Positions 36,378-40,674 are shown, counted from the stretch's first letter. The stretch: 64,000 nucleotides of DNA from Candidatus Scotarchaeum otlingeri (GCA_002011075.2 MTMA02000006.1:411529-475528); one strand, 5' to 3'. Made by a program: numbers and translations. The notes: generated from the sequence alone by a model not told the origin.

Positions 36378-37238
36378 TTATGGCCGCCATAAAAGACTTA
36401 ATATGTCCTCTATAGAACCCACCTCTATAATCTTAATGTCATATCCCTTCTCCTTAAGGTATTCTTCAACATCTATTTTGACCGGCTTATAAGTTATTAT
36501 TACAAAGCCAGGAACTATCTCGGTCCTTTCCTCGACATAAACAGTCACTACCCTCTCCCCCTTTGGCACTAAAAATATTTTAGCTCCATTCTCAGCAGCA
36601 GCTAGAGCTTTCTCCATTATAGCCCCTACCCTCCCTATGCTGCCATCGGGATTAATCGTGCCGGTCAGATACACGTTCTGATTCAAAGTCTTATTTAACA
36701 AGAAACTTATCAATAATACTGTGATCACGGCGCCTGCACTGGGTCCATCAACAATCTCCACCTCCTGATCAGCTGTCACTGATAATATAATGTCGAAGAA
36801 GGAGAGGTTAATACCTGTATAATTAACGGCGACGATTCTGGCGACTTCAATGCTTGTCTGCAAGTCTATACCTATCTTAGGCTCAGTATTAACGAATATC
36901 CGTCCCTTGCCTGGCACGATGGAGATGCTTATATTTAGAACCACACCTTCGTAGCCCCCAGTACCACTCTTAACCGCAACTGCATGGAAAGATAGGCTTC
37001 TAAAAAGACTCGAGGCTAAATCTATTCCTGTGGTATTTTCGTATATATAGGTAGTTAGCGCCTTATAGTACTCAAGTTGTTTCTGAAATACATTTATTTT
37101 ATTCTCTAGGTCTATTAACTCCTTTCTTAAAGCTAAATTATCGCTGTAAAGCTTTATGTAGCTATTTCCCAAGGCTATAAGCAAAATTATCAGTATAATA
37201 TTAGATGCCGCTAAGATAATTCTTGTTCTATCCCTCAC
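36378..37238 (-). CDS. Membrane-anchored S16 (Lon proteolytic domain) peptidase without ATPase module
   Basis: N-terminal TM helix plus a coiled-coil, then a Lon protease domain with the catalytic-serine motif 'DGPSAGAVITV' and 'TGTINPDGSIGRVGAI'. Confidence 0.7.
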   Translation of the reverse strand: MRDRTRIILAASNIILIILLIALGNSYIKLYSDNLALRKELIDLENKINVFQKQLEYYKALTTYIYENTTGIDLASSLFRSLSFHAVAVKSGTGGYEGVVLNISISIVPGKGRIFVNTEPKIGIDLQTSIEVARIVAVNYTGINLSFFDIILSVTADQEVEIVDGPSAGAVITVLLISFLLNKTLNQNVYLTGTINPDGSIGRVGAIMEKALAAAENGAKIFLVPKGERVVTVYVEERTEIVPGFVIITYKPVKIDVEEYLKEKGYDIKIIEVGSIEDILSLLWRP

Positions 37239-37428: not shown

Positions 37429-37488
37429 GAGCGATGACGAGCGAGGTCCTCAATGAATTAATGATTAGGTGAGGACGGGTCGGAGCTC
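37429..37488 (+). ncRNA. Candidate C/D-box sRNA (degenerate boxes) or structured hairpin RNA
   Basis: GC-rich island in AT-rich spacer. Layout: GAGC-g-AUGACGA (C-like)-12 nt-AUGA (D'-like)-4 nt-AUGAUUA (C'-like)-12/13 nt-CGGA (D-like)-GCUC, with a 4-bp terminal stem GAGC/GCTC. Caveat: the two 'guides' are mutually complementary (GTCCTCA 37446-52 / TGAGGAC 37470-76) and the D box is non-canonical. Confidence 0.35.
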
Positions 37489-37490
37489 GA

Positions 37491-37547
37491 GGCGATGATG
37501 AGTCGGGGCTTATGAAGATGGATGATTTAAACGAATTGCCCTGAGCC
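37491..37547 (+). ncRNA. Candidate C/D-box sRNA (2'-O-methylation guide)
   Basis: GGC-g-AUGAUGA (C box, 37495-37501), about 10 nt, AUGA (D'-like, 37512-15), AUGAUUU (C'-like, 37522-28), exactly 12 nt, CUGA (D box, 37541-44), then GCC pairing with the 5' GGC. About 57 nt, typical archaeal sRNA size. A TATA-like 'TTTATAA' lies at 37389-95 upstream of the tandem pair. Confidence 0.6.
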
Positions 37548-37583: not shown

Positions 37584-38372
37584 GTGTGGATATACAATGA
37601 CTATATAGAAGTAGCTAACCTAATCATAAACATAGAGAACGTATACAAATCACTTAATAAGAACCTTCTATCCTATAGCAAGGGACTACATATGGATAAG
37701 AAAATATCAACTGGTATTCCAGAGGTAGATGAGTTACTTGATGGGGGATTAGAGCCTTCCGCCATAACCGAATTTTATGGATATAATTGGAGATTGGTTA
37801 AAATGCTTATGCACAGGATAATAGGGGAGATATCGTTAAGGAGATATATAGATATTATTTACAACCAATTGTTTGACGGATTAGATCCGTATTTACTGCT
37901 AAGGATCGTGAAGAAACTTGGTGGTAACTGGGACATCGCCGAATCAAATATACGGTTGATACGTTGCTTTAAACCTGAGGATCTAATCGAAGCCCTATCT
38001 CACTATAGGGGCGATCTACTTGTAATTGTAGACCCCTATCTACATATAGATGACCCGATTAAGAAGTGGGTTGAGGCGTCAAGCATATCCGCCGCCATAT
38101 ATAAACTTCTATTAAATGAAGTTACGATCATAGTTTTTAATAAAACATTTCACATTGGATACAGGCCTTCAGGAGGCAATTTTCATCACCATATTATACA
38201 CTATCTAGTGAGGGTGGAGGCGGGTGGAGAGGGATATATCTTGCTTAAGCTGGAGAAGAGTCCCCTCAAGAGAGGGGGGTATAAATTGCTTTCCACAGAC
38301 TCGTTTATAGGGATAGAGAGTTCTAAGCAGCAAGTATTATATAGTTGGATGGAGGTATATCGAGATGGGTAG
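37584..38372 (+). CDS. RecA/RadB-like protein lacking the Walker A P-loop
   Basis: From Met at 37692: 'ISTGIPEVDELLDGGLEPSAITEFYG', the RadA/RadB/KaiC N-terminal signature, is followed by 'YNWRLVKML' where GxxGxGKT is expected. The Walker-B-like 'LLVIVDP' is retained. The listed GTG 37584 start is less likely than ATG 37692. Confidence 0.6.
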   Translation: MWIYNDYIEVANLIINIENVYKSLNKNLLSYSKGLHMDKKISTGIPEVDELLDGGLEPSAITEFYGYNWRLVKMLMHRIIGEISLRRYIDIIYNQLFDGLDPYLLLRIVKKLGGNWDIAESNIRLIRCFKPEDLIEALSHYRGDLLVIVDPYLHIDDPIKKWVEASSISAAIYKLLLNEVTIIVFNKTFHIGYRPSGGNFHHHIIHYLVRVEAGGEGYILLKLEKSPLKRGGYKLLSTDSFIGIESSKQQVLYSWMEVYRDG

Positions 38373-38610
38373 GTCTGCACCTACATTTACGCACGCGTTT
38401 GACGAATATATAAAGAAATTTAGAAGTATAGCGTCTCGATACCTCCCTGAGGAGGATATGGAGACCATAGAAACCATTATACGGGAGGCTAGACGTATAC
38501 AAAACCTCTTTATAGCATTACCTATGGATCCGGTGGAAGCTCTCCTATTAGGCGGCATACTATCTTTATACAGGGAGATTAAAACTGTTACTCTTAAAGA
38601 ATGCCTGTAG
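38365..38610 (+). CDS. Hypothetical small helical protein (operon partner of RecA-like and PolB genes)
   Basis: 81-aa ORF overlapping the upstream gene by 8 nt and ending 18 nt before the polymerase gene. No motif recognised. Confidence 0.5.
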   Translation: MGRSAPTFTHAFDEYIKKFRSIASRYLPEEDMETIETIIREARRIQNLFIALPMDPVEALLLGGILSLYREIKTVTLKECL

Positions 38611-38628
38611 ATAACCGGAGGGTTTTTC

Positions 38629-40674
38629 TTGAGATATGAAGGATGGTTATTGAAGCTGGAACGCTTAGACGAAGGATTTAACCTAATATTTATAGGGAAA
38701 TATGGCGGTCTAAAGATGCTGCCGGTAACATATTTTCCCCGTATCTATCTATCGCCGGCGAATGGCTTTTCCATCGAAGAATTGAGGAGGCTTATGGAGC
38801 GTCAGGAGATATTTAAAGATGTCTATCTTGAGCAGTGGCTCTTACCTCCCTGGTATGAAAAAGAGGTCTCTGTAGTTGTGGCTTCCCTATGGTCTATAAG
38901 AGAATATGAAGACACTATTAATAGGATATTATCGCTTGGTGTAGCGAGGATATGGAATACGATGCCTAGGCTAGAACAACGCTTTTTATCGGAGTATGGG
39001 CTTCCACCGTCGAGATATGTGGAGATAGATGGCGAGGGCTCCGTATCGATTCAGGATGATGAATCCGGGTGTATCGAGCCCCCCTTTAAGAGAATGTTTA
39101 TAAGGCTTGTTAACTGGTATGGAGATAACTTTAGACCCAACATCTCTCTACCTGAAAATGTAGTTGTGGAGGTCAGGTATGGATTTAGAGATTTTGGGGA
39201 ATATTATAAAATAGACTCCCTCGACTTATCGGATCTAAGTAATATAATAACATATTTTGATCCAGATATAGTGGAATGCTATTCGCAGAGGGTTCTAAGG
39301 TGGGTTTCGCGGGACAAGGAGGTAGAGTCAGCTTTAAAGAAGAGGCCGAGGGTATATTTGGATTATAGTAGGTCGGTTATGGGTCCTGATGAATACCCCG
39401 GGATAGTCGAGTTATCTAGGATATCATATGCCCCCCTGGATATTGTGTCACGGATGACTATAGGCGGTATATTAACTGGTATAGAGGCGATGGAAGCTAT
39501 TAAAAGACGCTACTTAGTTCCACATATTAATACCGCCCTAGAGAACTGGAAGACTCCTCATAAACTGTTAATGGCCGATAGAGGCGGGTTATATATGAAT
39601 CCCATGCCAGGGATTTTTTGGGGCGTAGCGCAATGCGACTTCTCTAGTTTATATCCGTCGATTATGGTTAAATATAATATTAGTCCAGAAACTGTTAACA
39701 ACCCATATGAGAAAGAGGGATATCTTGTAGCGGAATCGGGTCATTTAATCTCGTTTAAACGAAGAGGGATAATACCCATATCTCTATCTAAACTGGTGGA
39801 GTATCGTCTTCGGCTTAAAAAGAAGTATAGGGAAACTGGGGATAAGATATATAAACTGAGGTATACGGGTCTAAAGTGGATACTTGTCGCTAGCTTCGGA
39901 TATCTCGGTTACCGGAATTCTCGTCTAGGGAAGATAGAGGCATATGAGTGTGTAACGTCACTTGCACGTGCAATTATGAATAAAACTGTCGATATAGCTA
40001 GAAATATGAAGCTCAAAATACGCCATGTCCTTGTGGATTCGATATGGGTGGATGAAGGATCTGAAGATGATTACCAGGAGTTTATAAAGGAGGTGTCTGG
40101 TGAGATAGGTATACCGATTGAGATAGACTGTATATACATATGGATAGTCTTTTTACCCAATTCTTCTAAAGAACCCCTAGGCGTATCCAACAGATACTTT
40201 GGAGTTACACTCGATGGTTCATTAAAGATTAAAGGGATAGAAGCGATACGTAGAGATACCCCTCCATTTATCGCTGAAACTCAGTATAAAGCGTTAAAAC
40301 TATTATCACTGGGTAATACGCCTGAAGCCTTATATAAACAGTGTCTAGAGGCCTTAAAGCTGTATAGGGAGGCCGCCGATAAACTAATAGATGGAGATGT
40401 GGAGCCCGGAAAGCTGGTCATAACTAGAAGGGTTGGCCGGAATTGGTGGGAATATCGTGGTAAGGGACCCGCTATATATGCAGCTAAGAAGATCAAAGCA
40501 AAGGAGGGTGATGTAATTAAGTATATCGTCTATAATGGTGAGGGTTATCCGGTTGAAAAAAACTTTCGGGGATATGATGTAAAATATTATTTAGATGCGT
40601 TAGCGAGGTCTAGAGCACCCATAGACTTTATTATTTCAAGGCTGGAAAAAGAGCAGTCAATTATATCAGATTAA
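38629..40674 (+). CDS. Family-B DNA polymerase, PolB2/Dpo2-like (exonuclease motifs degenerate)
   Basis: Motif A 'CDFSSLYPSIM', motif B-like 'KWILVASFGYLGY', motif C region 'HVLVDSIWV' (DTD replaced by LVD), and the 'KIKGIEAIRRD' KxY-region. At the Exo I position 'FIRL' replaces FDIE. At the Exo II region 'DPDIVECYSQRVLRW' lacks the N...FD acidic residue. 681 aa, TTG start as listed. Confidence 0.8.
   Translation: MRYEGWLLKLERLDEGFNLIFIGKYGGLKMLPVTYFPRIYLSPANGFSIEELRRLMERQEIFKDVYLEQWLLPPWYEKEVSVVVASLWSIREYEDTINRILSLGVARIWNTMPRLEQRFLSEYGLPPSRYVEIDGEGSVSIQDDESGCIEPPFKRMFIRLVNWYGDNFRPNISLPENVVVEVRYGFRDFGEYYKIDSLDLSDLSNIITYFDPDIVECYSQRVLRWVSRDKEVESALKKRPRVYLDYSRSVMGPDEYPGIVELSRISYAPLDIVSRMTIGGILTGIEAMEAIKRRYLVPHINTALENWKTPHKLLMADRGGLYMNPMPGIFWGVAQCDFSSLYPSIMVKYNISPETVNNPYEKEGYLVAESGHLISFKRRGIIPISLSKLVEYRLRLKKKYRETGDKIYKLRYTGLKWILVASFGYLGYRNSRLGKIEAYECVTSLARAIMNKTVDIARNMKLKIRHVLVDSIWVDEGSEDDYQEFIKEVSGEIGIPIEIDCIYIWIVFLPNSSKEPLGVSNRYFGVTLDGSLKIKGIEAIRRDTPPFIAETQYKALKLLSLGNTPEALYKQCLEALKLYREAADKLIDGDVEPGKLVITRRVGRNWWEYRGKGPAIYAAKKIKAKEGDVIKYIVYNGEGYPVEKNFRGYDVKYYLDALARSRAPIDFIISRLEKEQSIISD

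Follow-up and report, generated by a model that had tools for sequence, protein, structure and literature searches.

What does a gene cassette do in which a family B DNA polymerase without proofreading is packed against a RecA-like protein that has lost its nucleotide-binding loop? The question is raised by positions 37584 to 40674 of a 64,000-nucleotide stretch of the Candidatus Scotarchaeum otlingeri genome (GCA_002011075.2 MTMA02000006.1:411529-475528), which was analyzed as a whole and is called the window here. An original prediction, made from the DNA sequence alone, had described three co-directional, closely packed open reading frames (ORFs) with an 8-nt overlap and an 18-nt gap, and had proposed a mutasome-type cassette. 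ORF calling gave identical coordinates: ORF1 is open over 37584-38372 (+; 262 amino acids counted from GTG) and overlaps ORF2 (38365-38610, +; 81 amino acids) by 8 nt, and an 18-nt gap separates ORF2 from ORF3 (38629-40674, +; 681 amino acids, start codon TTG). Our analysis indicates that the locus is very probably an iRadA-PPB2-PolB2 operon, the archaeal "PolB2 mutasome," with the following parts.

37692..38372, + strand: iRadA gene; 226 amino acids, an inactivated RadA/Rad51 core, the most likely ATG being backed by homolog lengths and by stop codons in the relative L084
38328..38351, + strand: PIP-like (PCNA-interacting peptide) motif QQVLYSWM at the iRadA C terminus, residues 213-220 of the 226-amino-acid form
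38365..38610, + strand: PPB2 gene (arCOG07300); 81 amino acids, N-terminal arm MGRSAPTF
38629..40674, + strand: PolB2/Dpo2-type family B polymerase gene; 681 amino acids, polymerase core kept, exonuclease site dead

ORF3 is a PolB2/Dpo2-type family B polymerase with a dead exonuclease. It matched Pfam DNA_pol_B (PF00136; E = 2.3e-27) and, as its best NCBIfam model, NF004416, "type B DNA-directed DNA polymerase" (665 positions; E = 4e-86; 290 bits, under the curated cutoff of 516 bits). Alignment with archaeal PolB structures placed DFSSLYPS at motif A and KWILVASFGYLGY at motif B and set VLVDS opposite GDTDS at motif C; ORF3 keeps the Asp of motif A, the Lys of motif B, and the second Asp of motif C. 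Across 101 homologs, residues D337, K416, D470, H466, and G536 do not vary. Most, not all, PolB2 proteins have another residue in place of the first Asp of motif C; in these homologs, the position (468) is Leu in 53, Ile in 37, Met in 7, and Tyr in 4, never Asp, and it is Leu here. An AlphaFold2 (AF2) model of the polymerase was of high quality (predicted local distance difference test score [pLDDT] 94.1; predicted template modeling score 0.91), and its top Foldseek match was an archaeal PolB (5mdn; E = 1e-35; template modeling score 0.71). The closest PolB2 outside the same species is 47% identical. Thus, the polymerase half of the original prediction was upheld: ORF3 belongs to family B (by the Pfam match, the aligned motifs A, B, and C, and the PolB-fold model), motif C reads LVD for DTD with the second Asp kept, and the profile fits PolB2/Dpo2, with motif states shared across the 101 homologs. 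PolB2 proteins are further recognized by a D(K/R) motif after a loop that mimics the RadA oligomerization motif. The best-aligned candidate in ORF3 is D245-Y246 in RVYLDY, within a poorly aligned loop where relatives have DK, DR, or DY. We also tried SRDK as the D(K/R) motif of the family and dropped it, the column being unconserved.

With the family profile, the N-terminal 236 residues of ORF3 aligned to PolB structures at a nonsignificant 3.9 bits. The exonuclease (Exo) motifs were placed with an alignment bridged via PolB2-like relatives in which the Pfam exonuclease domain is still detected. Here, the Exo I strand is PPFKRMFIRLV, without DxE; Exo II reads DPDIVECYSQR--VLRW, its Asp lost; and a deletion of ~40 residues lies ahead of Exo III, whose Asp position is occupied by Tyr. 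The bridged alignment agrees with the earlier claim that the Exo II acidic residue is lost, and it corrects the earlier reading of Exo I (FDIE replaced by FIRL), whose register was off by ~1 residue; the acidic DxE is absent either way. QDDES (residues 152-156) was considered as a surviving Exo I DxE. It had come from the nonsignificant 3.9-bit alignment, lying opposite the Exo I segment of P. abyssi (VDIET), and was rejected: the family consensus there is only "ED," relatives bearing PF03104 have no DxE at this place, and Exo II and Exo III have in any case lost their acidic residues.

ORF1 is iRadA, a RadA/Rad51 ATPase core without a P-loop. Single-sequence searches (Pfam, NCBIfam, and PDB) found ORF1 to be RadA-like only over ~30-45 residues at its beginning (Pfam Rad51, E = 4.6e-4, 20 bits against a gathering score of 22; NCBIfam RadA, E = 4e-6, under the curated cutoff). 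As such searches reach no further than the first ~45 residues, we turned to a family profile, for which we aligned 38 iRadA-like neighbors of PolB2 genes from other genomes (alignment A2). Against PDB, the A2 profile matched the ATPase domain of P. furiosus RadA (4a6p; E = 8e-23; positions 10-214 of 229), with further matches to Rad51, DMC1, RadB, RAD51 paralogues, and RecA. In phmmer comparison with PDB sequences, KISTGIPEVDELLDGGLEPSAITEFYGYNWRLVKMLMH of ORF1 aligned to the RadA P-loop region, and the RadA GxxGxGKT segment lay opposite ITEFYGYNWRLVKMLMH (GEFGSGKT versus GYNWRLVK). Since YNWRLVKM falls opposite GxxGxGKT, Walker A has been replaced, and a P-loop was found in 0 of the 38 family members. 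The Asp of LLVIVD stands in the RecA Walker B Asp column of the A2 profile alignment.

Structure prediction was consistent with this assignment. The AF2 model of iRadA had a mean pLDDT of 62, with block means of 72-94 over core residues 33-150, and is unreliable past residue 150 (the C-terminal third). Its top 50 Foldseek matches in PDB were all RadA, Rad51, DMC1, or RAD51-paralogue chains (best E = 5.5e-7; probability 1.00). A word-indexed protein search returned 2 relatives only with ORF1 and mainly short bacterial iRadAs with the family profile, which is why the AF2 alignment is shallow near the query. The 226-amino-acid form begins at about residue 6 of RadA ATPase-domain constructs, or about residue 86 of full-length S. 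solfataricus RadA, and its length therefore leaves no room for the RadA N-terminal helical (helix-hairpin-helix) domain. Both this domain and the polymerization motif are missing; loss of the N-terminal domain is a defining trait of iRadA (PMC11791011). The family is filed under arCOG04294/07763/08101. A RadA/RadB/KaiC-type RecA fold, a lost Walker A (YNWRLVKML), and a retained Walker-B-like LLVIVDP had all been predicted and were all recovered; neither another fold nor an intact nucleotide site emerged from the A2 profile, Foldseek, phmmer, or the P-loop count.

Sequence comparison identifies ORF2 as PPB2 (arCOG07300). ORF2 had zero matches in Pfam and NCBIfam. A single-query phmmer search recovered 13 small ORFs, each beside a PolB2 gene in another genome (best E = 2e-10), and two profile iterations extended the set to 58 homologs, all within PolB2 loci. 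ORF2 opens with MGRSAPTFT, and [MVL]GR[TSAN] occurs at or near the N terminus in 49 of the 58 homologs, typically as MGR(T/S)xP(S/T). According to Timinskas et al. (PMC11791011), an N-terminal "MGRT" arm is the key element of PPB2. ORF2 has the traits by which PPB2 is recognized, namely, a length of 80-100 amino acids, the MGR(T/S) arm, and a place beside polB2.

The same three genes recur together elsewhere. We scanned GTDB species representatives for PolB2 alignment matches with a degenerate pattern, analyzed the best 80 of 575 matching loci, and identified neighbors at those 80 by ORF calling and iterative HMM (hidden Markov model) searches. The order iRadA-PPB2-PolB2 was found in 41 of the 80, in archaeal and bacterial phyla; both partners in another order or in overlapping ORF calls were found in 7, and PPB2 alone in 10. 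Among the "PolB2 only" loci, many place PolB2 at the edge of a contig. When the count was limited to the 58 loci of other genomes that have 1.5 kb or more of upstream DNA, both partners were present in 44, only PPB2 in 6, and neither in 8. The neighborhood survey proposed with the original prediction thus gave co-occurrence of the partners with PolB2 in most of these 58 loci. The loci come from Thermoproteota, Geothermarchaeota, Nitrososphaeria, Bathyarchaeia, Thermoplasmata, and Marsarchaeota, and the bacterial ones include Anaerolineae, Nitrospirota, and Thermodesulfobacteriota. At eight loci with at least 1.5 kb upstream (L016, L019, L021, L043, L046, L047, L068, and L071), profiles detected no iRadA or PPB2 neighbor; the partners there have diverged too far, lie elsewhere in the genome, or are missing. 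These eight belong to Caldarchaeum, Nitrososphaeraceae, one Bathyarchaeota, one Thermoprotei, and one Thermoproteota.

The C termini of the iRadA proteins carry a further family feature. In A2, ~20 archaeal iRadA C termini share a recurring Qxx[LI]xx[WFY][LMIF] column pattern that includes QQVLYSWM, and bacterial iRadAs are shorter (~170-200 amino acids) and end in QLxLF-type beta-clamp motifs (e.g., L018, L023, L025, and L027; also L030, L035, L040, and L045). The PolB2 C terminus (..EKEQSIISD) has no aromatic pair. In the published pattern, iRadA as a rule carries the clamp motif, both proteins seldom do, and the motif fits the type of clamp in the host (PMC11791011); the archaeal and bacterial C termini aligned here independently reproduce this host-adapted pattern. 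Because the clamp motif sits on iRadA (QQVLYSWM), iRadA is predicted to be the probable PCNA tether.

An operon of this composition is not new. PolB2, arCOG07300, and inactivated RadA-family genes were recognized as a predicted operon by Makarova and Koonin (2013) and by Makarova, Krupovic, and Koonin (2014; PMC4104785), and a complex in damage repair or replication regulation was proposed (PMC4104785). Timinskas, Timinskas, and Venclovas (2025; PMC11791011) coined the names iRadA and PPB2, catalogued the operon arrangements, modeled a PolB2:iRadA:PPB2x3 heteropentamer in 40 species with AlphaFold, described the MGRT arm, the clamp motifs, and a PolB2-iRadA interface resembling RadA oligomerization, and likened the system as a mutasome to Pol V and Pol zeta. 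In experiments, the S. islandicus polymerase, Dpo2, is damage-inducible and needed for induced mutagenesis (PMC7390963), and it is an active, exonuclease-free polymerase specialized in extending mismatched or lesion-opposed termini (PMC8764526). Published work already covers the linkage, its reading as a mutasome, and the iRadA clamp motif, and the locus in the window is an ordinary member of the described system. The original prediction of the RecA-like and small proteins as accessory subunits of an exonuclease-dead PolB2 is the same as the published reading (PMC4104785, PMC11791011); it had foreseen that they might prove to be known Dpo2 subunits, and that being so, its novelty is gone and the proposed function is untouched. 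Its mutasome idea is supported, with one nuance: a mutasome-like cassette has been published, and the analogy in the literature is mainly with Pol V (UmuD'2C-RecA) and Pol zeta, not with ImuA-ImuB-DnaE2.

Several points weigh against reading the locus as a working mutasome. Purified Dpo2 alone is active in vitro, leaving the contribution of the partners undefined (PMC8764526). A 2026 review states that the complex still awaits experimental verification, and our literature search, which extended past that review, found no experimental report of the three-protein complex. In the clade of ORF3, the D(K/R) motif shows as D-Y, in a loop that is badly aligned across the 101 sequences. The iRadA model is poor beyond residue 150, and the PIP region accordingly rests on sequence only. 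Finally, no orc1/cdc6, SRAP, or DUF72 gene was found within 6 kb of the operon.

Three other explanations were weighed, all of which we consider unlikely. The one that survives best holds that the three-protein module serves replication initiation or regulation, or the restart of stalled forks, rather than translesion extension. This role was raised because many euryarchaeal copies adjoin orc1/cdc6 (arORC2) (PMC4104785), and the catalytic inertness of both partners is compatible with a regulatory or scaffolding function. However, no orc1/cdc6 gene lies within 6 kb of the locus at hand; the polymerase catalytic residues are invariant in 101 homologs; and S. islandicus Dpo2 is an active extender (PMC8764526) that is needed for damage-induced mutagenesis (PMC7390963). 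Moreover, Orc1-2 is now seen as a DNA damage regulator (PMC11791011). We therefore consider such a role improbable here.

That the cassette is a decaying, nonfunctional relic whose motif losses reflect pseudogenization is more improbable still. It is true that Walker A, the exonuclease residues, and the first Asp of motif C have been lost and that neither ORF1 nor ORF2 reaches the threshold of any Pfam or NCBIfam model. However, when the window was compared with L084, a 75%-identical relative, the proportion of nonsynonymous sites that differ (pN) was 0.14-0.24 and that of synonymous sites (pS) was 0.74-0.77 (saturated) in all three genes; with pN so far below pS, all three genes are under purifying selection. 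Against decay also stand the three intact ORFs, the occurrence of the same "defects" family-wide beside catalytic residues that are invariant in 101 homologs, the PolB2 model (pLDDT 94), synteny across phyla, and the biochemical activity of Dpo2 (PMC8764526).

The wider gene context is kept in L084, with F420-ligase-like, LPG-synthase TM, geranylgeranyl reductase, and Lon_C protease genes; POR/IOR subunit genes also flank the operon. The GC content of the locus is 0.40-0.42, inside the range of 0.35-0.45 across the window (~39% GC overall). It is most improbable, then, that the polymerase module is cargo of a mobile element (such as a casposon, or a plasmid or virus with a protein-primed PolB) and not part of the host repair machinery: divergent family B polymerases are frequent on archaeal mobile elements (PMC4104785) and the PolB2 phylogeny suggests horizontal transfers (PMC11791011), but the flanks are housekeeping genes (F420-ligase-like, geranylgeranyl reductase, Lon_C protease, and POR/IOR) in a context shared with L084, there is no GC anomaly, and no integrase, Cas1, or terminal-protein gene lies nearby.

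Returning to the PolB2 mutasome reading, gene identity, motif states, the iRadA and PolB2 folds, conserved synteny, and purifying selection are established for this locus, and published work leads us to infer that a complex forms, in what stoichiometry, that it binds PCNA and is induced by damage, and that it acts as an extender. Upon DNA damage, the operon would yield a PolB2-iRadA-PPB2 complex in which, as in the published models, one PolB2 and one iRadA would be joined by three PPB2 proteins, with iRadA and PPB2 as structural subunits. PolB2 would supply catalysis via the Asp of motif A and the second Asp of motif C. The filament-interface pocket of iRadA would bind the PolB2 loop that mimics the RadA oligomerization motif, and iRadA would tether the complex to PCNA through QQVLYSWM. 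PPB2, a small helical protein expected to have a three-helix fold, would form a trimer, with one MGRS arm inserted between PolB2 and iRadA beside the DNA. By analogy with S. islandicus Dpo2, the complex may extend primer ends set opposite a lesion by another polymerase. The N-terminal core segment of iRadA (ISTGIPEVDELLDGG...ITEFYG) is unusually RadA-like, being detectable by single-sequence search, and is accompanied by the C-terminal PIP-like motif. It is conceivable, if doubtful, that iRadA here, itself holding PCNA, might also cap or dock onto genuine RadA filaments or D-loops and recruit PolB2 to recombination intermediates as well as to stalled forks.

Comparison with known systems places the locus closest to the published PolB2 operon, whose type is S. 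islandicus Dpo2 with its two neighbors. The three families, their commonest order, and their tight packing are the same, as are a PolB2 that lacks the exonuclease site and the first Asp of motif C, an iRadA without the N-terminal domain and P-loop, the MGR(T/S) arm of PPB2, and a clamp motif that is on iRadA and absent from PolB2. The differences are in detail: motif C is IID in S. islandicus and LVD here, the PPB2 arm is MGRT as published and MGRS here, the D(K/R) column is seemingly D-Y in the clade of the window, and the host here is an uncultured archaeon. In E. coli, the Pol V mutasome (UmuD'2C-RecA-ATP) likewise couples a translesion synthesis polymerase to one RecA/Rad51-family protomer via a mimic of the filament interface, places the N-terminal arm of a small subunit close to the active site, and works with the sliding clamp (PMC11791011). 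In contrast to the PolB2 complex, its catalytic subunit is of the Y family rather than the B family, its RecA is the active cellular recombinase with ATP rather than a dedicated ATPase-dead paralogue, its UmuD' dimer is unrelated to PPB2, and its clamp motif is on UmuC.

The likeness to the ImuA-ImuB-DnaE2 cassette (ImuABC), on which the original prediction had drawn, lies in damage inducibility and in the pairing of a RecA-fold accessory with a nonproofreading polymerase for induced mutagenesis. However, the polymerase there is of the C family (DnaE2), ImuB is a dead Y-family adaptor without a counterpart in the PolB2 operon, and homology between the two cassettes is limited to the RecA fold. 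Furthermore, a 2026 preprint describes ImuA of M. smegmatis as a hexameric helicase-nuclease and hence not inert. Eukaryotic Pol zeta (Rev3-Rev7x2-Pol31-Pol32) is alike in being a multisubunit, damage-responsive B-family enzyme with an inactivated exonuclease that extends past lesions; it differs in its unrelated accessory subunits (the HORMA-domain protein Rev7 and Pol31/32) and in having no RecA-family subunit.

For annotation, the names iRadA, PPB2, and PolB2 can be given confidently to three genes that the source records either call "hypothetical" or leave without a name, and the first start codon should be moved to 37692. The existence of the heteropentamer and the roles of the inert RadA and of PPB2 are a general question of the family and not specific to the window. 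With a PolB2 model at pLDDT 94 and a clear iRadA PIP motif, this thermophile copy is one more candidate for reconstitution, no more.

The relocated start is the one point of gene structure on which the original prediction, with a 262-amino-acid ORF1 from 37584, was not borne out. The two closest ORF1 homologs (75% identity) are 226 and 223 amino acids long and begin at the Met of MDKKISTG, and on the L084 contig, the iRadA gene is called from the ATG equivalent to 37692. The in-frame stretch upstream of that ATG in L084 contains two stop codons and zero ATG, GTG, or TTG codons; the 36-codon N-terminal extension (37584-37691, +) is unconserved. The following signals accompany the three genes.

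37653..37660, + strand: TATA-like CTTAATAA, a putative promoter element ~35 nt 5' of ATG 37692
38351..38356, + strand: Shine-Dalgarno-like GGAGGT, 8 nt 5' of the PPB2 ATG and within the 3' end of iRadA
38617..38622, + strand: Shine-Dalgarno-like GGAGGG, 6 nt 5' of the PolB2 TTG

The TATA-like CTTAATAA is exactly conserved in L084 amid otherwise diverged DNA. Given homologs of 223-226 amino acids, the upstream stops in L084, and this conserved element, the most likely start of the first gene is ATG 37692 (226 amino acids) rather than GTG 37584. Because the extension is unconserved and the TATA-like element is kept, 37584-37691 is probably promoter rather than coding sequence, and the placement of the element would suit a short-leader or leaderless archaeal transcript. 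A scan for sigma-70 promoters and terminators, which is uninformative for an archaeon, stayed at chance level. The damage-response promoter hexamer of Sulfolobales, ANTTTC, was not seen by eye in the ~140 nt upstream, and we gave this no weight. The Shine-Dalgarno-like GGAGGT inside the end of iRadA is consistent with translational coupling in a single operon, and putative Shine-Dalgarno motifs before genes 2 and 3 are as expected for internal operon genes. From its TTG, the PolB2 N terminus aligns with homolog N termini (xxGWxLD consensus).

Both ends of the operon adjoin other genes. Downstream, the PolB2 stop codon (40672-40674) lies 3 nt from the stop end (40678, -) of the convergent POR-gamma gene, and there is therefore no space for an intergenic terminator. 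Upstream, a divergent gene (36378-37238, -) encodes 286 amino acids with only the Lon C-terminal (S16) proteolytic domain (Pfam Lon_C, E = 3e-11), a hydrophobic N terminus, and no ATPase domain; it stands beside the operon in L084 too.

The 450-nt intergenic region 5' of iRadA also contains two tandem elements resembling C/D-box small RNAs, at 37429-37488 (+) and 37491-37547 (+). The first reads GAGC-GAUGACGA...CGGA-GCUC, and the second reads GGC-GAUGAUGA...GGAUGAU...CUGA-GCC. Rfam returned zero matches at the gathering threshold across the whole window; below threshold, the elements matched many archaeal C/D families, the best being sR11 (26.8 bits against a gathering score of 39; E = 0.005). 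The block is ~85-90% identical in L084, where flanking intergenic DNA is barely alignable, and in the first element, the terminal stem differs between the two genomes by a compensatory change (GAGC/GCUC versus GAAC/GUUC). It is conceivable, if doubtful, that these small RNA-like genes share transcription with the operon.

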